Positions 1,365 to 13,928 are shown, counted from the stretch's first letter. The stretch: 13,928 nt of DNA from a virus (IMGVR_UViG_2648501669_000011); one strand, 5' to 3'. The notes: generated by a model not told the origin, from the letters alone. Program-made: numbers and translations.

Positions 1365-1901
1365 ATGTCAAATGTGATTGGGATTGGTGATGCTTATCAC
1401 TGGAGTGTTTTTAAAATCGCCGAGGCTTTTGGGCTTCATCGGGACACAGTAAAAAAACGTCTCCTCGCCGCCAACACTCCTGTGGCTGCAACTGTCAAAG
1501 GAAACCCCGTTTATGCCCTGCAGCATGTCGGACCTGCCCTGTTTGGCCCGAAGCATGAGGTAGCAGACTCTGTTCATGATCCATCCCGGATGGAGCCGAA
1601 AGAGAGGAAGGACTGGTTCCAGTCTGAAAATGAAAGGATCAAGCTGGAAAAGGAACAGCGGAAACTCATCCCTGTCGATGAAGTGGTCATCGTCTATTCA
1701 TCTATGAGAAAGGCTGTCGTTCAGGTTCTGGAGACCATTCCGGATATTCTGGAACGCGATTGCGCCCTGACTCCTCAGGCTGTTGGTGTTGTACAGCAGG
1801 CCATTGATGACCTGCGATATACCCTTCAGGAAAAATCCTACGAGGCCTGTGCTGCTGAATTAATTTCTAATGAGGAAGGGGAGAGTCTCGAGGAGGAATA
1901 A
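1365..1901 (+). CDS. terminase small subunit (lambda Nu1-like, N-terminal helix-turn-helix)
   Basis: GGAG at 1355-1358 then ATG 1365. N-terminus MSNVIGIGDAYHWSVFKIAEAFGLHRDTVKKRLL has an HTH-like layout comparable to the lambda Nu1 N-terminus; acidic C-terminal tail (EEGESLEEE). Stop TAA overlaps the ATG of the large subunit (TAATG at 1899-1903). Confidence 0.75.
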   Translation: MSNVIGIGDAYHWSVFKIAEAFGLHRDTVKKRLLAANTPVAATVKGNPVYALQHVGPALFGPKHEVADSVHDPSRMEPKERKDWFQSENERIKLEKEQRKLIPVDEVVIVYSSMRKAVVQVLETIPDILERDCALTPQAVGVVQQAIDDLRYTLQEKSYEACAAELISNEEGESLEEE

Positions 1902-4015
1902 TGGGTTTTTCATCAGCCCGAAACCTTGGCAGGGACATATCTGCAGGATTTTCCCCACCACGTCGCATGCCGATTTCGGAGGCTGTTAAAAAATTCATGC
2001 GAGTTCCTAAGGGCGCGGGTAACTCAGTGCCATGGGATCCTGAACTGACGCCCTACATTATTGAACCTATGAACTGTTTGGCATCGCGTGAATACGATGC
2101 GGTGATTTTTGTTGGTCCTGCGCGAACAGGGAAGACCATCGGTCTGATCGATGGATGGGTTGTCTATACCATCGTCTGTGATCCTTCGGACATGCTCGTC
2201 GTGCAGATGACCGAAGATAAGGCTCGTGAGCATTCGAAAAAACGGCTCGACAGAACGTTCAGAAGCAGTACAGCGGTAAAGAAAAGAATGAGTCCACGTC
2301 GTAATGACAATAACGTCCATGATAAGACGTTCAAGGATGGCTCATTTCTTAAAATTGGTTGGCCCTCAGTCAATATTATGTCGTCGTCGGATTACCGGTT
2401 TGTTGCCTTAACCGATTACGACCGCTTTCCGGAGAATATCGACGGTGAAGGTGATGGTTTCTCCCTGGCTTCAAAACGTACCACCACATTTATGTCTGCA
2501 GGTATGACGCTGGTGGAGAGTTCCCCTGGACGTGAGATCACAAACAGCAAATGGCGCAGAACGTCACCGCATGAAGCCCCGCCCACCACGGGGATCCTTT
2601 CTCTATATAACCGTGGCGATCGTCGTCGCTGGTACTGGCCCTGCCCAGATTGTGGTGATTATTTCCAGCCATCTATGGAGGCTATGACGGGGTATCGTGA
2701 CAATCCTGATCCTGTAAAAGCCAGTGAAGCGGCTCATATATTATGCCCTCATTGTGGCAACCGAATCACCGCAGACATGAAACGTGAACTGAATGGTCGC
2801 GGCGTCTGGTTGCGTGAAGGTGAGCAGATTGACAGAGAAGGGAATGTTACCGGAACGCCACGTCATTCAAGGATAGCCAGCTTCTGGATGGAAGGCCCCG
2901 CTGCAGCCTATCAGACCTGGGCGCAACTGGTTTACAAACTACTGACTGCTGAGCAGGAATATGAAGCCACAGGCAGTGAGGAAACACTGAAGGCGGTGAT
3001 TAACACCGACTGGGGATTACCTTATTTGCCTCGTTCTGCCATGGAGTTGCGCAGTGCAGATGTCCTGATGCAGCGGGCTGAGGATTACGGTAAGCGCCTG
3101 GTACCGCCGAAAGTGCGTTTTCTTATTGCGGCTGTGGACGTGCAGGGCGGGAAGAACCGACGGTTTGTGGTGCAGATTATTGGCTATGGCGAGGATGGCG
3201 AACGCTGGCTGGTGGACCGTTATAACATCCGACAGTCATTGCGCTGCGATGAAAATGGCGAAGCATTACCTGTGCATCCCGGGGCTTATCCTGAAGACTG
3301 GCAGTTGCTGGTCACCGATGTACTGGAGAAAACGTATCCGCTCCAGTCCGATCCGGCCCGCAGAATGCCTGTACTGGCAATGGCGGTGGACAGTGGTGGT
3401 GAAGACGGGGTGACGGATAACGCCTATAAATTCTGGCGAAAATGTCGTCAGGATGGACTGGGGCGACGGGTTTTTCTGGTAAAGGGAGACAGCACGAAAC
3501 GCCAGAAAATTATCACCATCACACACCCGGATAATACCGGGCGAAGCGATCGCCGTGCGGATGCTCAGGGAAAGGTGCCGGTATATCTCCTGCAGACAGA
3601 CCTGCTGAAAGATCAACTAAGCAATAACCTGCAACGTGAAATGCCCGGACCGGGCTACATTCATTTTCCTGACTGGCTCGGGGAGTGGTTTTATGAAGAG
3701 TTGACCTATGAGGAACGCGGTGCTGACGGGAAATGGCGCAAGCCAGGAAAAGGGAATAACGAAGCATTTGACCTTTTTTGCTATGCCCATGCCGTCGCCA
3801 TTCTGCGTGGCTATGAAAAAATCCGTGACTGGAACAACCCTCCCCAGTGGGCAAGAGGGCAGAATGCTGACGCTGGGGCTTCAGCAGACGGACGTTCTTC
3901 CGGCACAGTGGACAAGAAAAACGTTGCCGGAAGAGATGAGCGGCAAAAAGCAGCATCGTCGGAAGCGTTATCCGGAAACTGGTTATCACTACCCCGAAAC
4001 GGAGGATGGTTGTGA
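1901..4015 (+). CDS. terminase large subunit (lambda gpA family)
   Basis: 704-aa ORF directly coupled to the small subunit, with GAGGAGGAA upstream. P-loop GPARTGKT (2114-2137) near residue 72-79, similar in position to the lambda gpA ATPase motif. CPDCG (2642-2656) and CPHCGN (2744-2761) form a CxxC-X29-CxxC zinc-ribbon-like motif. Size and order match gpA. Confidence 0.85.
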   Translation: MGFSSARNLGRDISAGFSPPRRMPISEAVKKFMRVPKGAGNSVPWDPELTPYIIEPMNCLASREYDAVIFVGPARTGKTIGLIDGWVVYTIVCDPSDMLVVQMTEDKAREHSKKRLDRTFRSSTAVKKRMSPRRNDNNVHDKTFKDGSFLKIGWPSVNIMSSSDYRFVALTDYDRFPENIDGEGDGFSLASKRTTTFMSAGMTLVESSPGREITNSKWRRTSPHEAPPTTGILSLYNRGDRRRWYWPCPDCGDYFQPSMEAMTGYRDNPDPVKASEAAHILCPHCGNRITADMKRELNGRGVWLREGEQIDREGNVTGTPRHSRIASFWMEGPAAAYQTWAQLVYKLLTAEQEYEATGSEETLKAVINTDWGLPYLPRSAMELRSADVLMQRAEDYGKRLVPPKVRFLIAAVDVQGGKNRRFVVQIIGYGEDGERWLVDRYNIRQSLRCDENGEALPVHPGAYPEDWQLLVTDVLEKTYPLQSDPARRMPVLAMAVDSGGEDGVTDNAYKFWRKCRQDGLGRRVFLVKGDSTKRQKIITITHPDNTGRSDRRADAQGKVPVYLLQTDLLKDQLSNNLQREMPGPGYIHFPDWLGEWFYEELTYEERGADGKWRKPGKGNNEAFDLFCYAHAVAILRGYEKIRDWNNPPQWARGQNADAGASADGRSSGTVDKKNVAGRDERQKAASSEALSGNWLSLPRNGGWL

Positions 4016-4238: not shown

Positions 4239-5750
4239 ATGGGTTTTTTTGATAAAGCACTTGGTGCAATTGCGCCAGGGTGGGCAGTTTCGCGCGCCAG
4301 AAACAAAATGCTGCTGAGAGCTTATGAGGCGGCGCAGCCTTCACGCCTGAATAAAGCCCGGCGTGAGAGTCGTTCTGCCGATACAGCAGTTTTTTCTGCC
4401 GGCACTTCGTTAAGGGAGCAGGCCAGGGCGCTGGATGAAGATCATGATATCGTGATTGGTCTGCTGGATAAGCTGGAAGAGCGGGTTATTGGTGCGCAGG
4501 GGATCCAGGTTGAACCACAACCACTGAGAAGCGATGGCACCCTGCATGAATTGCTGGCAGAGCAGATCTCGGCATTGTGGTCTGAATGGTCTGTTCGCCC
4601 TGAGGTCACGGGGATGTTCACTCGCCCGGAGGCCGAACGGATGGCATTGCGATCTGCTTTGCGTGATGGCGAGATGTTCGTACAACTGGTGCGTGGTCCT
4701 GTCGCCGGTCTGAATCATTCCACTGTGGTGCCATTATCACTGGAACTTCTCGAAGCAGATTTTGTTCCGGTCAGTCTGAACACGAACGCGGGTCAGCAAG
4801 TCCGCCAGGGCATTATTCTTAACAACTGGGGGCGGCCTGTAGGGTATCGGGTTTATAAATACCATCCTGCAAATATGCGTGGATTCAGCGCCGATCTCAA
4901 AACTGTTCACGCAGACAACATGCTTCATCTGGCGATGCGGAAACGGCTTCATCAGGTGAGAGGTGTCAGCCTGTTACATGGTGTGATTCGCCGGATTGCT
5001 GATCTGAAAGATTACGAAGAATCAGAGCGTGTGGCTGCCCGTATTGCTGCCGCGCTGGGTTTCTACATTAAGCGTGGTGATGCCGCCAGCTTTCCGACGG
5101 ATAACGACTGGACACCCACAGAACAAAAACCCCGGTACTTTGATATTTCGCCGGGCATGATTTTTGACGAACTGGCCCCCGGTGAAGATCTGGGGATGGT
5201 GGAGTCGAATCGTCCGAATGTTCATCTTTATGAATTCCGGAACGGACAGTTGCGTGCTGTGGCTGCCGGAACCCGTGGCAGTTATTCCAGTATTGCCCGT
5301 GACTATAACGGCTCCTACAGTTCGCAGCGTCAGGAGCTGGTGGAAGGTTACGAAGGCTACGGGGTTTTACAGCAGTGGTTTGTCGGTCAGTACAGCCGCC
5401 CGGTGTACCGGGCATGGCTGGAGCAGGCGATACCTTTTCTTGAAATTCCTCCTGATGTGGATATGTCCACGCTTTTCAATGCCACTTATCTTGGCCCGGT
5501 GATGCCGTGGATTGATCCGGTGAAGGAGGCTGCAGCATGGCGGGCCATTCTTCGCGGTGGTGCCGGGACGGAGGCCGAGTGGATACGTGCCCGTGGGCAG
5601 TCACCGCAGGAGGTCAAACGTCAGCGACTGCGTGAAACTGAATTTAACCGGGAAAACGGGCTGGTGTTCGATTCTGACGCCGCTAACGATAAAGGAGTGA
5701 TCCCTGATGCAGCAAATGATAAACCCGCGTCTTCGCGGGACGATGATTAA
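4239..5750 (+). CDS. portal protein (lambda gpB family)
   Basis: 503-aa ORF in the canonical position after terminase and W; GAGG 6 nt upstream of ATG 4239. Size and composition fit lambda-type portals; acidic C-terminus (SSRDDD). Confidence 0.8.
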   Translation: MGFFDKALGAIAPGWAVSRARNKMLLRAYEAAQPSRLNKARRESRSADTAVFSAGTSLREQARALDEDHDIVIGLLDKLEERVIGAQGIQVEPQPLRSDGTLHELLAEQISALWSEWSVRPEVTGMFTRPEAERMALRSALRDGEMFVQLVRGPVAGLNHSTVVPLSLELLEADFVPVSLNTNAGQQVRQGIILNNWGRPVGYRVYKYHPANMRGFSADLKTVHADNMLHLAMRKRLHQVRGVSLLHGVIRRIADLKDYEESERVAARIAAALGFYIKRGDAASFPTDNDWTPTEQKPRYFDISPGMIFDELAPGEDLGMVESNRPNVHLYEFRNGQLRAVAAGTRGSYSSIARDYNGSYSSQRQELVEGYEGYGVLQQWFVGQYSRPVYRAWLEQAIPFLEIPPDVDMSTLFNATYLGPVMPWIDPVKEAAAWRAILRGGAGTEAEWIRARGQSPQEVKRQRLRETEFNRENGLVFDSDAANDKGVIPDAANDKPASSRDDD

Positions 5751-7797
5751 TCCCCGCGCCAGCCTTGCGGGGGTGGATGCCGCTAATGGTCAGTGCTGGT
5801 ATGAAATCCGTGCACAGACTGCCGGGCGGGTGGAAATTTACCTCTATGACGTGATTGGCGGATGGGGCATCACCGCGCAGCAGTTTATTGCTGACTGTAA
5901 GGATGCGGGGGTGTTTGAGGCCAGCGCTATTGATCTGCATATCCACAGCCCGGGCGGTGATGTGATGCAGGGGTTTGCCATCTTTAACACGCTGTCACGG
6001 CTGAAAGCGAAGGTGGATATCTGGGTGGATGGTGTTGCAGCCAGCATGGCCTCCATGATTGTCTGCCTGCCTGGCGCCACAGTGCATATGCCTGAAAATT
6101 CCTGGCTGATGATACACAAGCCGTGGGGCGGGATCGCCGGTGATTCCGATGATATGCGTGATTATGCTGACTGGCTGGATCGCAACGAGGCGCTGATGCT
6201 GTCAGCCTACATGAATAAAACCGGACTCGGGCAGGAGGAGCTGGAAGCCATGCTGAAAGCAGAAACCTGGCTGAACGGTGCTGAAGCTGTGGAAAAAGGC
6301 TTCGCTGATACGCTTGAACCTGAATTACAGGCTGCGGCCTGTGTGAACCAAAATAAACTGAAGGATTACCATAATATGCCAGAACAGATTAACGCGCTTT
6401 TTGCTCCACGTGCAGAAACGACAAACGGACAGCCGCAGGAGCCGAAAGCAACCCCGCAAAATGCGCAACAGATCGCTGCTCAGCAGGCACCATCAACCGG
6501 AAATGTGGATATCAGCGCAATTGCTTCGCAGGTTCAGCAACAACTGATGGCAGCCAATGCGGAACGTGTGCAGGCTGTAACCGCAGTTTTTGCCTCTTTC
6601 CCGTCTTATGCCGCACTGAAAGCGGAGTGTCTGAACGACATGACCTGTACGGAAGCACAGGCCCGTGAAAAACTGTTGCAGGCGCTGGCAGCCGGAACGA
6701 CACCAAGTGCAGGCCCGGGCGCTGTTCATATTCATGCCGGGAACGGTAATCTGGTCGGCGATTCCATTCGTGCGGCTGTGATGGCACGCGCCGGATATGC
6801 CGAAGCAGAAAAAGATAATGCTTATAACGGTTTTACACTGCGCGAGCTGGCGCGTGCTTCGCTGGTTGATCGCGGTATCGGTATCTCCGGTCATTCCGCA
6901 CCGATGGCGATGGTGGGGCTGGCATTTACTCACAGCAGCAGCGATTTCGGCAATATCCTGATGGATGTGGCTCATAAAGCTGCGTTGCAGGGCTGGGATG
7001 ATGCCAGCGAAAATTTTGACAAATGGACCCGCAAGGGAACGCTGACTGATTTTAAAACCGCGCATCGTGTCGGGCTGGAAACTTTCCCGACGCTACGAAA
7101 AGTATTGCCGGGGGCTGAATATAAATATGTGACCCTGAAAGATCGTGGCGAACCGATTGCACTGGCGACTTATGGCGAATTGTTCAGCATTGATCGCCAG
7201 ACCATCATCAATGATGACCTGGATATGCTGACCCGTATTCCGATGGCAATGGGGGCGGCAGCGCGGACTACCGTGGGGGATCTGGTCTGGGCCGTGCTGA
7301 CCAGCAATCCGAAAATGTCGGATGGCAAACCGCTGTTCCATGCAGATCATGGCAACCTGGTGACTGCCGATTTGTCTATTGAGGGGCTGGATTCCGGGCG
7401 TAAAGCCATGCTGCTCCAGAAATCGGGTGACCGTCGCCTGAACATTCGTCCTGCTTTTATGTTGACGCCTGTTGCCATTGAGTCGCGTGCCAATCAGTTG
7501 ATTAAGTCTGCCAGCGTGCCTGGTGCAGATGCGAACAGCGGCATTATTAACCCGATTCAGAATTTTGCCACGGTTCTGTCAGAGGCCCGTCTTGATGACA
7601 GCAGCCCGACGGATTATTACCTGGTGGCAGCGCAGGGGCGTGACACGATTGAAGTGGCTTACCTCGACGGTATTGATACGCCGTATCTGGAGCAGCAACA
7701 GGGCTTTACGGTTGATGGTGCAGCATTCAAGGTGCGCATTGATGCCGGAGTGGCACCGCTTGACTGGCGTGGCATGGTCAAAGTGAAAAAACAATAA
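5707..7797 (+). CDS. three-part head gene: ClpP-like prohead protease, Gln/Ala-rich scaffold-like linker, C-terminal major capsid domain (Gifsy-2 type)
   Basis: 696-aa ORF. N-terminal third carries ClpP catalytic signatures: AASMAS (Ser codon 6043-6045, compare E. coli ClpP AASMG) and MIHKPWGG (His codon 6115-6117, compare MIHQPLGG). Residues about 224-330 are low-complexity Q/A/P-rich. No separate capsid gene of about 340 aa follows, so the C-terminal 370 aa is inferred to be the capsid protein. Start is ambiguous (ATG 5707 with GGAG at 5694-5697; in-frame ATGs at 5716 and 5743). Confidence 0.7.
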   Translation: MQQMINPRLRGTMINPRASLAGVDAANGQCWYEIRAQTAGRVEIYLYDVIGGWGITAQQFIADCKDAGVFEASAIDLHIHSPGGDVMQGFAIFNTLSRLKAKVDIWVDGVAASMASMIVCLPGATVHMPENSWLMIHKPWGGIAGDSDDMRDYADWLDRNEALMLSAYMNKTGLGQEELEAMLKAETWLNGAEAVEKGFADTLEPELQAAACVNQNKLKDYHNMPEQINALFAPRAETTNGQPQEPKATPQNAQQIAAQQAPSTGNVDISAIASQVQQQLMAANAERVQAVTAVFASFPSYAALKAECLNDMTCTEAQAREKLLQALAAGTTPSAGPGAVHIHAGNGNLVGDSIRAAVMARAGYAEAEKDNAYNGFTLRELARASLVDRGIGISGHSAPMAMVGLAFTHSSSDFGNILMDVAHKAALQGWDDASENFDKWTRKGTLTDFKTAHRVGLETFPTLRKVLPGAEYKYVTLKDRGEPIALATYGELFSIDRQTIINDDLDMLTRIPMAMGAAARTTVGDLVWAVLTSNPKMSDGKPLFHADHGNLVTADLSIEGLDSGRKAMLLQKSGDRRLNIRPAFMLTPVAIESRANQLIKSASVPGADANSGIINPIQNFATVLSEARLDDSSPTDYYLVAAQGRDTIEVAYLDGIDTPYLEQQQGFTVDGAAFKVRIDAGVAPLDWRGMVKVKKQ

Positions 7798-7824: not shown

Positions 7825-7869
7825 ATGGCTGAAGCGGCGCACTTTGCGCCGCATTTACCGGAGAAAAAA

Positions 7870-8199
7870 ATGTCAAAAAATTTTGTTCAGGACGGAAAAA
7901 ACGTCGACTGGCTGAACGGGACCGGAAAGGCGGTGTCATCTGGCGATCTGGTTGTTCAGGATAATCTTGTTGGTGTTGCTCACGCTGATATTCCGGACGG
8001 GGATGTGGGCATTCTGCATACGGTGGGGGTTTTCTCTTTGCCTAAAGAGGCAGAGGCGCTGACGCAAGGCAGGCTGGTGTATTTCAAAGCGGATACGGCA
8101 ACACTGACTGCAACGAAATCAGGTAATACGCTGGTGGGAACAGTATGGGCATCGGCTGAAGCCGGAGATGCCTGTGTTTGTGTGCGTCTGGGGTACTGA
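7870..8199 (+). CDS. head decoration / capsid cement-like protein (DUF2190-like, about 109 aa)
   Basis: GGAG at 7860-7863 sits 6 nt before ATG 7870. Translation MSKNFVQDGKNVDW...SGDLVVQDNLVGVAHADIPDGDVGILHTVGVFSLPKEAEALTQGRLVYF...GNTLVGTVWA fits the pattern I recall for DUF2190 proteins that follow capsid genes. Size is close to lambda gpD. Confidence 0.6.
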   Translation: MSKNFVQDGKNVDWLNGTGKAVSSGDLVVQDNLVGVAHADIPDGDVGILHTVGVFSLPKEAEALTQGRLVYFKADTATLTATKSGNTLVGTVWASAEAGDACVCVRLGY

Positions 8200-9274: not shown

Positions 9275-9844
9275 ATGGCTGAACCCTTATGCATGGCATC
9301 CTGGCACGCTGCTGTGCTGGATACCCTGAAAAAACTTAAATGGATCAATGATGCGGACACCTATCCGGAACGGGTCACGCAACTGGTCACTCCGGCGGTG
9401 TTTCTGGCGGTGGATGGCTGGGATGCGAAAAGCAATGCAGACGGGCAGATGACGGTGGTGTTGTCTGCCGCGCTGTGGGTACTGGTTGACCGTGCCGGTG
9501 AGCCGGATAAAGAAAAAAAAGAAGAACGCAGGGCGATAAAGCCGGATATTTTTATCCGTTCGGCGGCCGCCGCGTTGTCGCACTGGCTCGACGGGCAGAC
9601 GTTCGGACTGGCAAATGTGGAGCCTGCCATTTTTATATCAGCGGACGCAGATGAAACCGATCCGCGTCTGGATGATTATCTGGTCTGGCAGATTTCATTT
9701 AACCAGACGGTGACGTTTGGTATGGATCCCTTTGCCACGGATAACCTGCCGTTACAGCGGGCCTGGCTGGGCGTGGCACCGGAGATCGGGCGACAGCATG
9801 TGGATGATTATCGGCTGATTTTTGAGGGAAAGCCACGTGAATGA
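9275..9844 (+). CDS. putative tail completion / neck protein (189 aa)
   Basis: GAGG at 9266-9269 sits 5 nt before ATG 9275. Translation begins MAEPLCMASWHAAVLDTLKKLKW. Stop TGA at 9842-9844 overlaps the next gene's start. Functional call is positional. Confidence 0.5.
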   Translation: MAEPLCMASWHAAVLDTLKKLKWINDADTYPERVTQLVTPAVFLAVDGWDAKSNADGQMTVVLSAALWVLVDRAGEPDKEKKEERRAIKPDIFIRSAAAALSHWLDGQTFGLANVEPAIFISADADETDPRLDDYLVWQISFNQTVTFGMDPFATDNLPLQRAWLGVAPEIGRQHVDDYRLIFEGKPRE

Positions 9845-10457
9845 GGTTCTGGGGGATTTACAGCGTCGCCTGGCAAATATGGTCCGGCGTGGGGTGATCC
9901 ACTCGGTGCGGCTGGACGGTGGTTTTCCGGAATGCCGCGTGGATCTGGGGGATATTGTGACCACCTGGCTGCCATTGTGTCAGGGTTTTGCCGGGAAAAA
10001 CCGGGCAGATTTTGAGCCGTTTGCTGTGGGCGATGCGGTCACGGTACTGTCAGAGGCCGGGGAGCTGAATAACGGTCGTGTTTTTCCCGGCTGGAATACC
10101 GGTGAGGCACCGGCTCCGCAGGGCAGCGACAGTGAGCACATCACCCGTTACGGAGATGGCACGGAAATTTGCTATAACCGGGAGACGCACTCACTGACCA
10201 TTATTCTGGCGGAAGGGGGCACCTATGCCATTACCGGGAATGGTGTGCTGGACGGAAACGTCATGATCTCAGAAGACCTGATCGTGAACGGACGCACGAT
10301 GGTTGAAGGTGAAGTGGTGGTGAAAAGTGATTTTTATGCAAAAGGCGAGGTGACGGATAAATCCGGTAGCATGAGCCGGATCCGGGAAACGTTTAATGGA
10401 CACGACCATCCCGGAGACAGTGGGGGAACCACGAAAGTACCGAATCAGAAAATGTGA
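9837..10457 (+). CDS. baseplate central spike / assembly protein (P2 gpV / Mu gp45 family-like)
   Basis: GAGG at 9825-9828 sits 8 nt before GTG 9837. N-terminus VNEVLGDLQRRLANMVRRGVIHSV, internal TTWLP and AVGDAVTVLSEAGELNNGRVFPGW, and C-terminal HDHPGDSGGTT (10401-10433, an HxH motif) match my recollection of gpV-type spikes. Same size class as P2 gpV. Confidence 0.6.
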   Translation: MNEVLGDLQRRLANMVRRGVIHSVRLDGGFPECRVDLGDIVTTWLPLCQGFAGKNRADFEPFAVGDAVTVLSEAGELNNGRVFPGWNTGEAPAPQGSDSEHITRYGDGTEICYNRETHSLTIILAEGGTYAITGNGVLDGNVMISEDLIVNGRTMVEGEVVVKSDFYAKGEVTDKSGSMSRIRETFNGHDHPGDSGGTTKVPNQKM

Positions 10458-10495
10458 CCTGCTGCGGCAGGTTTTTTTATGTCCGGAGAATGCAA

Positions 10496-11956
10496 ATGGG
10501 GCAATTACATGGTGTGGAAACCATCGAGCTGACAGCAGGCACGGTGGCAGTAACCACAATAGAGACAGCCATTATTGGTGTGGTGGGAACCGCGCCGCAG
10601 GCTGCCGGAGCTGTGGCAGCGACACTGACAGCGGGAACGCCGCTGCTGGATAACGAGCTGACCTTTACGGCAAAAGCGGGGGGACGGAGCGGAAATACCA
10701 TTACCGTTATTGCTGAACAGGCTGTCAAAGAAAAAAGTGCGGGTGCGGTTCCCACGTCAGCAAAATGGGAAAACGGAAGCCTGTTGATTTGGCTTGGATG
10801 CAGTGAAGAGGGGGCAGGCAATGCCACCGTCAGTGATGTTGTGACGGCGGTGAATGGTGTGGCGGGGGCCGGGGTGAGTGCCACCGGCAGCGGTGACGGT
10901 ATTGTGTCGCCGTTTTCCGGCACACTGAGTGGCGGTGAAGATGAACCGTTTCCGCTGAACACGCCAGTGGCGATGGCGGGAACAACGGCGCTTTCACGTC
11001 TGGGGATCACCGGAACACTGAAGCAGGCGCTGACGGAGATTAACGACCAGCGTAACGCGCTGTCGGTGATCGTCCGGGTGGAAGAAAAAACGAAGCCGGA
11101 AGAGCAGCGTGCTGCCATTCTTGCGGGGATCAGCATGCTGTCATCGGCAAAATCCGTCACCACGTATCAGCCACGTATTGTGATTGCACCAGGATTCAGT
11201 GAAGACGATGCGGTGGGTAAGGCACTGGAAACGGTGGCCGGAAAACTGCGTGCAGTGGCGTACGTGGATTGTGCTGCGGGCGCGACACTGCAGGATGTGG
11301 TGCAGCGTCGCCAGTCTTACGGTGCCAGGACTGAATTACTGCGCCCGCGTGTGCAGGTCAGTAATGCAGAGGGGCAACTGGTGTATCGCCCGTATTCGGC
11401 CTTTGCTGCCGGACTGCGTGCCCGTATTGACTATGAAAAAGGGTGGTGGTGGAGCAAATCAAACCAGGAGGTTTACAACATCCTCGGTGTTGAGCAGGTG
11501 GATGAATTTATCCTCGGTGAGCGCAACTGTGATGCCAACCTGCTTAATATGCAGAATGTCTCCACCCTGATTCGCCGCGCCGGATTTAAACACTGGGGAA
11601 ACCGTCTGTGCTCGTCCCATCCCCAGTGGCATTTCGAGTCCGTCCGCCGTACTGCGGATGTGATTGAAGACAGTATTCAGGAGGCGATGCTGGCGTATGT
11701 TGACCGCCCGCTCGATCGCCAGAATGCGGACGATATCATCGGCACCATTAATGCGTATATGCGCCGTCTGGTGGCAGAAGGGGCCATCTTCGGGGGGCGG
11801 GCATGGCTGGATCCGGAACTGAATACCGCCGAAACACTGGCAGCCGGGGAACTGTACATCAACTATGACTTCGGTCCCAAATCGCCGACGGAACTTATCA
11901 GCATGCGGGTGAGCGTCAACAACGAATACGGCATTAAGGAGATGACGGCAACATGA
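10496..11956 (+). CDS. contractile tail sheath protein (P2 FI / Mu L family)
   Basis: GGAG at 10485-10488 sits 7 nt before ATG 10496. N-terminus MGQLHGVETIELTAGTVAVTTIETAIIGVVGTAP and C-terminal motifs GWWWSK, TLIRRAGFKHWGNRLCS, AETLAAGELYINYDF parallel P2 FI as I recall it. 486 aa. Confidence 0.8.
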   Translation: MGQLHGVETIELTAGTVAVTTIETAIIGVVGTAPQAAGAVAATLTAGTPLLDNELTFTAKAGGRSGNTITVIAEQAVKEKSAGAVPTSAKWENGSLLIWLGCSEEGAGNATVSDVVTAVNGVAGAGVSATGSGDGIVSPFSGTLSGGEDEPFPLNTPVAMAGTTALSRLGITGTLKQALTEINDQRNALSVIVRVEEKTKPEEQRAAILAGISMLSSAKSVTTYQPRIVIAPGFSEDDAVGKALETVAGKLRAVAYVDCAAGATLQDVVQRRQSYGARTELLRPRVQVSNAEGQLVYRPYSAFAAGLRARIDYEKGWWWSKSNQEVYNILGVEQVDEFILGERNCDANLLNMQNVSTLIRRAGFKHWGNRLCSSHPQWHFESVRRTADVIEDSIQEAMLAYVDRPLDRQNADDIIGTINAYMRRLVAEGAIFGGRAWLDPELNTAETLAAGELYINYDFGPKSPTELISMRVSVNNEYGIKEMTAT

Positions 11957-12459
11957 GCAGCAAAAACACATTACGCGCCTGGACTTTTTTCCGCCAGGGG
12001 ATCCGTATTCAGGGAGCGCATGAGTTCACGCCCCCCACGCTGTCCATAACCACCACTGATTTACGCACCGGGGCACAGGATGCCCCCACGCCGGTTGACG
12101 ACGGCATGGAGGCGCTGACCTGCCAGATTAAATTCTATGGTCTGGATACAGACATGCTGTCCAGTCTCGGATTTGTCAGTGGCAACCGCTCCCGCTTCAC
12201 GGCCTATCAGGGTTATCTGGCAAACGGCACCGCGCTGGGGACCACCGAAGAAATCGAAGGTTTTGTGAAAACGGTGACGCCGGATGCACGTGGAAACAGC
12301 AGCCTGTCAGAAAATGCGGTGACAGTGGAAATCGCGGTGAATTATTACCGTCAGACGCTGGAGGGGATCGAACTCATTATGATTGATACCGAGCGTTTCG
12401 AGCGTCGGATCAACGGTGTGAATGTACTTGCCGGTCTGTCGGCAAAAGTGCGTCTCTGA
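11953..12459 (+). CDS. tail tube protein (P2 FII / Mu M family)
   Basis: ATG 11953 overlaps the sheath stop (ATGA). 168 aa, immediately after the sheath gene. C-terminus YYRQTLEGIELIMIDTERFERRINGVNVL resembles the P2 FII C-terminus. Confidence 0.75.
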   Translation: MSSKNTLRAWTFFRQGIRIQGAHEFTPPTLSITTTDLRTGAQDAPTPVDDGMEALTCQIKFYGLDTDMLSSLGFVSGNRSRFTAYQGYLANGTALGTTEEIEGFVKTVTPDARGNSSLSENAVTVEIAVNYYRQTLEGIELIMIDTERFERRINGVNVLAGLSAKVRL

Positions 12460-12469
12460 TTAACACATA

Positions 12470-12492
12470 ACGGCCTGCGGGCCGTTTTTTTT
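12470..12492 (+). terminator. intrinsic terminator / attenuator between tube and chaperone genes
   Basis: CGGCC (12471-12475) pairs with GGCCG (12480-12484) around loop TGCG, followed by an 8-T run (12485-12492). AAGGAG for the next gene follows directly. Confidence 0.55.
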
Positions 12493-12504
12493 AAGGAGCA
12501 GATT

Positions 12505-12804
12505 ATGAATATTCCGGGCGAAACCCGCACCATCACACTGTACACGCCGGTCACTCTGGGAGGCGGGGCTGTGCTGGAACGCATCACCATGCGCGAACCG
12601 CTGGTGCGCGATCGCATTGCCTTCACCAAAGACCGGGGAACAGAAGAGGAAAAAGAGGCGCGTATGATTGCGCAGCTTTGTAATCTGAGTGAGCAGGATA
12701 TCTGGCTGCTGACCGCAGCGGATTATGCCCAGCTGACGGATGCCTTTAATGTTTTTATGCTGCCACCCGGGAAGCGACCGAAACCGAAATCTTCAGAGGG
12801 TTAA
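12505..12804 (+). CDS. tail assembly chaperone (P2 gpE-like), zero-frame product
   Basis: AAGGAG at 12492-12497 then ATG 12505. 99 aa (MNIPGETRTITLYTPVTLGG...MREPLVRDRIAFTKDRGTEEEKE) between tube and tape measure genes, as for P2 E. Confidence 0.7.
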   Translation: MNIPGETRTITLYTPVTLGGGAVLERITMREPLVRDRIAFTKDRGTEEEKEARMIAQLCNLSEQDIWLLTAADYAQLTDAFNVFMLPPGKRPKPKSSEG

Positions 12805-12932
12805 GGTTTCTCGGGCGGCGGCTGCATTTTCCTCTTTCCGATTATCTGTCCATGCCGTTCAGTGTGTTTACGGCATTTTTACTGGATGAAGTGGAGGCAG
12901 TAAAACGTGGGAAGCGTAAGCCAGAATCTTAA
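12505..12932 (+). CDS. predicted -1 frameshift product of the tail chaperone (gpE+E'-like, about 142 aa)
   Basis: The -1 frame is open only from 12750 (TAA at 12747-12749) to TAA at 12930-12932. A T5 run (12752-12756) sits at the start of that window, where tRNA-Phe on TTT 12754-12756 can re-pair at 12753-12755. The extension overlaps the tape measure start by 26 nt. Confidence 0.5.
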
Positions 12933-13928
12933 GGCTACCGTGTCGTTCGGGGGCAAACTGGACAGTTCGTGGTGCCGTTCGGCGACGGATCTGCGAAAAA
13001 ATTTGCAGGATGTGGAGCAGCAGGCTGCGCGTTTACGTAAGGAGCAGGCAGAGCTGGCAGCAGAAATGAAGCGGGCGGCGCTGGCAGGGAAGCGTTTTAA
13101 GTCGATGGAGGATGAATACGCCCGGCTCACTGCTGAAATTAAGAAAGCGGATGCGGCCCAGAAAAAACTGAACCGGAGCCTTGAGCGTCGCGATCGGCTC
13201 GGACGTTTTATGGGCAAAGGAAAAAGCCTGCTTGCCGGAACCGGCAAATTTGCCTGGAATGCCGGTCTGGCGATGGGAGGCGGGGCCGTGACCACGGCGC
13301 TTGGTGCGCTGATTGCTCCGGCTGCCATGAATGCGCAGACGGCTGAAACAGCGGGTAAAGCGACTGCGTATGGCGTGGATACCCGCACGTACATGAACTG
13401 GGACGCCCTGGCAAAACAGTACGATATGACCGGCGATAATATCGGGGATCTGTTTGAGGAATACCTGCATAAGGCCGGGGAATATAAACAAAATGGCAAG
13501 CAGAGTTCGCTTTCTGACGCCTTTGAAACGCTGGGATTTGAGGAAGGCGATCTTGCCGGACTGAGTGATAAGGAACAGTTCGAAAAAATTATCGACAGGG
13601 CGCTGTCACTGAAGGATGAATCAAAGGCATCGTTTGCGCTGGATGCATTGTTTGGTGGTGAAGCCAGTAAACTGCTGATGCTGATCAAACGTTCTGGAAA
13701 AAGTTTTCAGGAACTGCTGGCTGAGCAGGATAAATATAACCTGGTGACAAAAGAGGGTGTGGCTGGCGCACTCGCCGGAAACAAGGCTGTTTCTGATTTG
13801 CAGCAGGTTTTTTCTTCTGCGGTTGCAGAAATTTCCGGACAACTGGGCGCAGAGCTGGCCCCCGCCATACAAGAGACAGCGGGTGACCTGGCAGAGTGGT
13901 TTAAAGGCGGAGGCATTAAAAAGGTTGT
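12907..13928 (+). CDS. tail tape measure protein, N-terminal part (3' end beyond window)
   Basis: GGAGG at 12892-12896 sits 10 nt before GTG 12907. The frame is open for more than 340 codons to the window end, alpha-helical, Ala/Lys/Glu-rich, in the position expected after the chaperone genes. Missing from the ORF track because no stop lies in the window. Confidence 0.75.
   Translation, partial: MGSVSQNLKATVSFGGKLDSSWCRSATDLRKNLQDVEQQAARLRKEQAELAAEMKRAALAGKRFKSMEDEYARLTAEIKKADAAQKKLNRSLERRDRLGRFMGKGKSLLAGTGKFAWNAGLAMGGGAVTTALGALIAPAAMNAQTAETAGKATAYGVDTRTYMNWDALAKQYDMTGDNIGDLFEEYLHKAGEYKQNGKQSSLSDAFETLGFEEGDLAGLSDKEQFEKIIDRALSLKDESKASFALDALFGGEASKLLMLIKRSGKSFQELLAEQDKYNLVTKEGVAGALAGNKAVSDLQQVFSSAVAEISGQLGAELAPAIQETAGDLAEWFKGGGIKKV

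Follow-up and report, generated by a model that had tools for sequence, protein, structure and literature searches.

The window analysed here, a stretch of 13,928 nucleotides of viral DNA (IMGVR_UViG_2648501669_000011), carries head and tail genes among which a gpE-like tail assembly chaperone lies directly between the tail tube gene and the tape measure gene. The genes of the window and the Shine-Dalgarno (SD) sequences at the locus are the following.

1901-4015, gpA-type large terminase (Pfam)
4239-5750, lambda-family portal (Pfam)
5707-7797, ClpP protease-capsid fusion (Pfam)
7825-8199, cement protein (Pfam)
9822-10457, baseplate V-like protein (Pfam)
10454-11956, tail sheath (Pfam)
11953-12459, tail tube FII, PF04985 (Pfam)
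12493-12498, plus strand, SD of the chaperone gene, AAGGAG
12505-12804, plus strand, tail assembly chaperone, gpE-like, 99 aa (ORF, PF10109, PHROG 166, PGAP)
12893-12897, plus strand, SD of the tape measure gene, GGAGG
12907-13928, plus strand, tape measure gene from its GTG start at 12907, running off the window end (translation, PGAP)

The chaperone reading frame extends from ATG 12505 to TAA 12802-12804 and encodes a protein of 99 aa that matches PF10109 (Phage_TAC_7, 'E, or 41 or 14'; E = 2e-13, 50.6 bits against a cut-off of 25, residues 9-85) as well as PHROG 166 'tail protein' (E = 1e-24). PGAP names the gene 'phage tail assembly protein' in E. coli RM10740, and this label is found on 13/13 E. 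coli matches. The order of PF04985 tube, PF10109 chaperone and tape measure is the same in the PGAP annotation of loci L001 and L002, where homologues of gpU, gpX and gpD follow the tape measure gene. The PGAP start of the tape measure falls at the position of the window's GTG 12907 in E. coli RM10740, with ATG used in L002; since the same PGAP start is found in two E. coli prophage copies and is followed there by the gpU, gpX and gpD homologues, the long reading frame from GTG 12907 is taken to be the tape measure gene. The 102 nt that separate chaperone from tape measure carry no PGAP annotation in two E. coli prophage copies.

Several other features of the window deserve mention. It joins a lambda-like head module to a P2-like contractile tail module. 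Its 696-aa reading frame at 5707-7797 shares 44 nt with the end of the lambda-family portal gene and has two domains, one a ClpP-type protease (residues 73-202) and the other a capsid domain (PF25209, residues 385-693). Between the tube stop (12459) and the chaperone SD lies a terminator-like hairpin, AACGGCC TGCG GGCCGTT followed by T8 (12469-12494), the sole terminator-like site within 11900-13200, which may hold transcription of the chaperone, tape measure and baseplate genes below that of sheath and tube. In E. coli RM10740 the tube-chaperone spacer differs by a 7-nt indel.

Across the end of the chaperone gene and the gap that follows it, the -1 frame is open. The features that bear on its use are listed below.

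12747-12749, plus strand, TAA of the -1 frame, the upstream limit for a shift in the window
12751-12759, plus strand, invariant block GTTTTTATG, holding the proposed slip site U_UUU (12753-12756) and the T5 run (12752-12756)
12756-12932, plus strand, putatively E'-like -1 frame extension of 58 codons, YAATREATETEIFRGLRFLGRRLHFPLSDYLSMPFSVFTAFLLDEVEAVKRGKRKPES, plus TAA (translation, conservation, pN/pS)
12759-12822, plus strand, candidate stimulatory hairpin with arms 12759-12772 and 12809-12822, enclosing the 0-frame stop (folding)

Opening at 12750, the -1 frame runs to the TAA at 12930-12932. The original prediction had these limits right, although the count of 59 codons given there has to be corrected to 60 sense codons plus the stop; the overlap that it had described with the tape measure start is likewise present and amounts to 26 nt past GTG 12907. 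The TAA at 12747-12749 is not itself a functional element, since some relatives do without it, TTC AAC replacing TTT AAT. By our own arithmetic the chance of 60 open codons is (61/64)^60, or about 0.06, and an open alternative frame is in itself weak evidence here because the +1 frame of the window is open too, for 50 codons (12737-12889). This second open frame is also a caution against ranking overlapping ORFs by length only.

What takes the -1 frame beyond chance is its conservation among relatives. The region is carried by 13/5,426 complete E. coli genomes at 78-98% identity (megablast), and a scan of IMG/VR gave 80 loci with chaperones 74-100% identical; together the E. coli and IMG/VR sequences provided a comparison set of 81 usable loci, comprising 57 distinct sequences. 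A megablast search of the phage collection with 11953-13928 gave no match. The -1 frame is open over the same 180 nt, and thus at the same length, in 81/81 loci and all 57 distinct sequences, so that no homologue in the set has a closed frame of the kind that the original prediction had named as evidence against itself. Its end is fixed relative to the tape measure start in all relatives, unlike the 0-frame stop, whose place differs by 12 nt from clade to clade; the +1 frame has eight different end points and encodes a peptide that is not conserved. The -1 peptide has the consensus YAPAREATE..L.RAIRFLGRRLHFPM.DYLDMPFS.FSDFLTDE.EA.NRGR.KPEP, within which the pattern LRFLGRRLHFP..YL.MPF..F is conserved, and 17 invariant residues are common to the 21 aligned extension peptides.

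The pattern of nucleotide variation points the same way. Upstream of 12750 the variation falls at third positions of 0-frame codons (0-frame pN/pS over 12691-12750, 0.11), and past the 0-frame stop it falls at third positions of -1-frame codons. Within 12805-12906, which begins after the 0-frame stop and closes before GTG 12907, the -1 frame has a pN/pS of 0.24, compared with 1.32 for the 0 frame and 2.61 for the +1 frame. Where the two reading frames overlap, over 12757-12789, the 0 frame is the more constrained (0.46 versus 1.02 for the -1 frame), and consequently the first 15 or so residues after a shift carry little signal of their own. No conserved ATG, GTG or TTG was found among the 57 relatives in the -1 frame upstream of the RFLGRRLHF block; the commonest start in that frame, ATG 12834 (46/57 relatives), lies past the block and is CTT in the window. 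The -1 frame is shown here, at the level of sequence comparison, to be protein-coding and to have no start of its own. Frameshifting of the G/GT type is recognised by just such a frame, coding but startless and lying over the 3' end of a tail chaperone gene.

The 0-frame tail past the proposed slip site, MLPP.(K/E)RPK (12757-12783), is more conserved than expected of an unstructured C-terminal tail (pN/pS 0.46), and the CCNCCC that encodes its Pro-Pro doubles as the 5' arm of the candidate hairpin; the constraint on 12757-12783 may act on RNA rather than on protein.

The T5 run to which slippage had originally been assigned is present at 12752-12756 and is phased in the 0 frame as AAT GTT TTT ATG, in which GTT encodes V83, TTT F84 and ATG M85. 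The surrounding block GTTTTTATG is 100% identical in the 57 distinct relatives. Among the 14 four-fold codons that can be compared within 12583-12759 (first two bases fixed), GTT of Val83 alone keeps its third base (55/55 T) while the other 13 vary, and TTT of Phe84 is the only invariant codon among eight NNY codons. Judged from the alignment, the T-run is shown here to be under synonymous-site constraint, and as coding in neither frame explains T12753, this base is best read as a part of the slip site. Of the in-phase motifs, U_UUU at 12753-12756 is the sole one common to all relatives (57/57); the other frequent motif, C_CCG (12762-12765), occurs in 46/57 relatives and not in the window. The shift has to fall within 12750-12801 in the window, and family-wide before the earliest 0-frame stop, equivalent to 12790. 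An in-phase X_XXY_YYZ heptamer is missing from the overlap of the window and from that of 55/57 relatives. The alignment of homologues that had been suggested as a check thus finds both the T-run and the open -1 frame kept in 57/57, agrees with the T-run as the slip point, the only slip-prone motif present throughout and one invariant at synonymous sites, and bears out the earlier remark that the site is not a canonical heptamer, GTT TTT ATG providing the tetramer U_UUU.

We infer that the slip site is a Z_ZZN tetramer on which a single tRNA-Phe slips, since the neighbouring codons cannot re-pair (GUU would need YGU, and AUG would need UAU); tRNA-Phe itself re-pairs one base back with a perfect match. 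All 16 Z_ZZN tetramers have been measured in E. coli, where alone they barely shift and a strong stimulator is needed (Sharma et al., 2014, PMC4066793). With the IS3 pseudoknot as stimulator their order is A_AA.G >> U_UU.C > U_UU.U > C_CC.Y > A_AA.A, at frequencies of 0.26-5.6%, U_UU.U being the third most shift-prone tetramer, and IS elements use A_AA.G and U_UU.Y tetramers (PMC4066793). Five identical bases in a row are included by PRFect among the motifs at annotated tail-chaperone frameshifts (PMC10885494).

A stimulator may be provided downstream. The candidate hairpin at 12759-12822 has a minimum free energy of -33.8 kcal/mol (z = -1.77 versus shuffles) and ranks among the most stable 1% of 75-nt windows within 1.5 kb, the median over 39 distinct relatives being the 10th percentile. 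In the wider family the helix takes the register 12763-12776 with 12804-12818 and starts 6 nt past the T-run; in the window clade the first hairpin pairs lie only 2 nt past it. The family helix pairs in 84.5% of cells, versus 32-57% with the partner slid, with zero compensatory changes. A proximal GCCCG/CGGGC hairpin is found in 37/42 sequences and is absent from the window clade. No real covariation was found in three explicit helices (the window register, the proximal GCCCG/CGGGC hairpin and the family register), and RNAalifold on 42 sequences gave trivial helices only and no compensatory pairs. Since each arm also codes for conserved residues, 0-frame LPP in one case and -1-frame LGRR in the other, conservation of pairing is inseparable here from that of coding. 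The downstream hairpin may help slipping. Upstream of the T-run no SD-like stimulator was visible on inspection of the aligned relatives. The conserved 0-frame Pro-Pro was considered as a stalling stimulator and set aside on reasoning, as it is still untranslated while the ribosome is on the slip site and a queued ribosome would stand some 10 codons upstream.

More distant homologues extend the comparison. A tblastn search with the predicted fusion recovered Citrobacter phage Chris1 and Hafnia phage yong2, in two pieces each that cover 96-99% of the fusion, and further PF10109 chaperones at greater distance; related 0-frame chaperones carry names from Pantoea, Erwinia, Klebsiella, Citrobacter, Serratia and Providencia. 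In these homologues the slip motif is located at the C-terminal end of the PF10109 domain, on or beside a Phe codon (Lys in the 569R10 family), as follows.

P2: GGT TTT TTG, T_TTT_TTG; annotated 'site of -1 translational frameshift' (NC_001895)
Acidithiobacillus phage AcaML1: T_TTT_TTG
IMG/VR locus L105, 50% identical to the 569R10 chaperone: T_TTT_TTG
Burkholderia phage Mica: A_AAT_TTT; joined 'frameshift product' CDS annotated
Acinetobacter phage Alexa: A_AAT_TTT
Achromobacter phage Mano: G_GGT_TTT; joined 'frameshift product' CDS annotated
Wolbachia WO: T8 run
Pseudomonas phage ZRG1: TCT TTT TCG; tetramer only
Escherichia phage vB_EcoM-569R10 family: GTA AAG, A_AAG tetramer; kept down to 72% identity

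The window chaperone is 44% identical to that of the 569R10 sister family. As far as the aligned sequences tell, the position of the slip site is ancient and the motif at it has repeatedly been exchanged; tetramers serve in the window family as well as in its E. coli sister family. The claim that the arrangement is conserved as in P2 E/E' is strengthened by these homologues, P2, Mica and Mano included, whose slip sites lie at the same aligned Phe or, in the 569R10 family, Lys.

Some records deserve separate comment. The record of Hafnia phage yong2 (L086 897-1016) makes the 3' portion of the extension a 'hypothetical protein' of 39 aa in its own right, and in the record of Citrobacter phage Chris1 (L085) the gap between chaperone and tape measure is empty; both are likely mis-annotations of the same frameshift. 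The 569R10 family (L089 722-727, L094-L104) has an unannotated -1 extension too, with a gap of 109 nt before the tape measure gene.

The sequence evidence makes it highly probable that the locus is expressed by a programmed -1 ribosomal frameshift of the lambda G/GT and P2 E/E+E' type at the T-run, and the original prediction, which had read the chaperone gene in this way, gains support from the PF10109 assignment, the coding -1 frame, the invariant T-run and the homologues. Most ribosomes would read the chaperone to its stop at 12802-12804 and produce the 99-aa protein. A minority would slip back by one base with tRNA-Phe on UUU 12754-12756, re-pairing on UUU 12753-12755, and would take UAU 12756-12758 as the next codon and read the -1 frame on to 12930-12932; the product would be the same whether tRNA-Phe slips while in the A site or later, in the P site, ahead of the next tRNA. 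That product would be a predicted fusion of 142 aa with the junction ...DAFNVF-YAATREATE..., in line with the length of about 142 aa first proposed, as a slip at F84 gives 84 + 58 = 142. Its C-terminal, putatively E'-like domain would be encoded across the gap between chaperone and tape measure. By analogy with lambda and P2, both proteins would be expected to bind the tape measure protein and the rarer fusion to recruit the tube protein, and neither chaperone form would be expected in the virion. We infer likewise the efficiency of the shift and the part that the fusion plays in assembly.

Other readings of the locus were weighed against a shift at the T-run. A -1 shift might instead occur elsewhere in the overlap (12757-12801), on C_CCG or on an unrecognised motif near CGA CCG AAA, and the phasing of C_CCG in 46/57 relatives would suit this, as would a -1-frame pN/pS of about 1 over 12756-12788, where the early residues are not visibly selected. 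Against such a site, which is considered unlikely, the window reads G CCA where others have C_CCG, a tetramer that is weak in E. coli at only 1.8-3.6 times background (PMC4066793). No other motif is common to all members, the distant homologues have theirs at the Phe codon, and the synonymous invariance of GTT TTT would be left unexplained. That the -1 ORF might be a separate small gene with its own, possibly non-canonical, start and no frameshift is suggested by the 39-aa 'hypothetical protein' annotated inside the extension of Hafnia phage yong2, by ATG 12834 and, in some clades, by a TTG or ATG at 12789-12801. The window, however, has no ATG, GTG or TTG in its -1 frame before 12852, the RFLGRRLHF block lies upstream of the common ATG and there is no family-wide start codon, and P2, Mica and Mano show the same arrangement and have annotated fusions, that of P2 reportedly proven; a separate gene is thus judged very improbable.

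Transcriptional slippage on the T5/A5 run, by which some mRNAs would have one U extra or missing, would fit a homopolymer lying exactly at the site, and with the T8 run of Wolbachia WO the mechanism is conceivable there. Efficient transcriptional slippage needs runs of about 7-9 or more, so that five T's are too short, and Mica, Mano and the 569R10 family do not have such a homopolymer at the same place; there is little to recommend this mechanism for the window, and its probability is put very low. A +1-frame extension is given hardly any credence: although that frame stays open for 50 codons here, its eight different ends, its unconserved peptide and its pN/pS of 2.6 refute it as far as comparative data allow. 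The reading preferred is therefore a -1 ribosomal shift on the T-run.

The extension itself has few counterparts in databases. Neither the -1 peptide, the +1 peptide nor the fusion gave a match for the extension in Pfam, PHROG or NCBIfam; PF06528 (Phage_P2_GpE) did not match the extension, the fusion or 21 relatives at E-value limits up to 1 and 10, and the fusion found none among PDB sequences at E <= 10. In a search of 5.8 billion clusters 0/74 matches were protein counterparts of the fusion, and the only sequences reaching into the extension were the metagenomic P0068 and P0072, which thread all three frames, the +1 stretch included. These two were rejected as natural fusions, the +1-frame stretch inside them indicating apparent indel errors. 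Two further metagenomic sequences, P0065 and P0073, have the chaperone C-terminus joined to unrelated N-termini and look chimeric or indel-containing. Profile comparison of the extension with P2 E' alone gave an hhalign probability of 1.6%; against seven P2-type extensions the result was weak (P = 0.0012-0.0016, probability 16-19%), with a constant register that sets LHFPLSDYLSMPF against FHWPPSELYPMSL and with LHFPLSDYLSMPFSVF aligned to FHWPPSELYPMSLTEL as well. Homology of the extension to P2 E' is plausible on these alignments.

Among known systems P2 is close to the window in many respects. The 0-frame protein belongs to PF10109 in both, the gene order is FII tube, E and T tape measure followed by U, X and D, the -1 shift, predicted for the window, falls on a TTT Phe codon where the PF10109 domain reaches its C-terminal end, the fusion, likewise predicted for the window, has 142 aa in both, the extension overlaps the tape measure start in both, and the extension motif H-(W/F)-P-x-S-(E/D)..M is similar. 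The two differ in the slip site, which in P2 is the canonical heptamer T_TTT_TTG, its P-site and A-site codons being those of Phe and Leu, and in the window is the tetramer U_UUU, and in the head genes, which in the window are lambda-like (gpA terminase, lambda-family portal and ClpP-capsid fusion). The frameshift that yields P2 E and E+E' is reported to have been established experimentally (Christie et al., 2002). Burkholderia phage Mica and Achromobacter phage Mano are likewise similar, having PF10109 chaperones with 31-40% identity over the matching part of the query, a slip codon TTT that aligns with F84, an annotated 'tape measure chaperone frameshift product' and a -1 extension that ends near the tape measure start; they differ in their heptamers (A_AAT_TTT and G_GGT_TTT) and in extensions of the HTGW..EI..M..FLWW type.

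With lambda G/GT the window would share the making of two chaperones at a fixed ratio from one gene upstream of the tape measure by a low-level -1 shift, although there is no sequence similarity and lambda has the slip site G_GGA_AAG and a non-contractile tail. That frameshifting in tail chaperones has been textbook knowledge since 1993-2004, and a further case is no surprise to specialists. In lambda, gpG and gpGT are made at about 30:1 and both bind the tape measure protein, the T part binding the tube protein, and P2-like phages shift 2- to 3-fold more efficiently (Atkins et al., 2016, PMC5009743; for the lambda work, Levin, Hendrix & Casjens, 1993, and Xu, Hendrix & Duda, 2004, 2013, 2014, as summarised in PMC5009743). 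IS3-family elements resemble the window in their minimal Z_ZZN site and single re-pairing tRNA (PMC4066793), and differ in having a defined downstream pseudoknot where the window has a candidate hairpin and in encoding a transposase rather than a tail chaperone.

It may be suggested, though only tentatively and with some doubt, that a tetramer (U_UUU here, A_AAG in the sister family) replaced an ancestral heptamer in a widespread enterobacterial prophage lineage and that the ratio of products depends on the hairpin 12759-12822. If true, this would be a natural phage case of IS3-style tetramer frameshifting driven by a long hairpin over the 0-frame stop, and would offer a handy system for asking how far structure alone drives single-tRNA slippage. 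Non-heptamer motifs have already been noted at annotated sites. The locus is an unannotated member of the well-known class of lambda G/GT and P2 E/E+E', mildly unusual only in its tetramer, and its predicted fusion, which is probably essential for tail assembly, is absent from protein databases. To that class it adds a conserved U_UUU tetramer as the putative slip site in a phage structural gene, backed by comparison among relatives.
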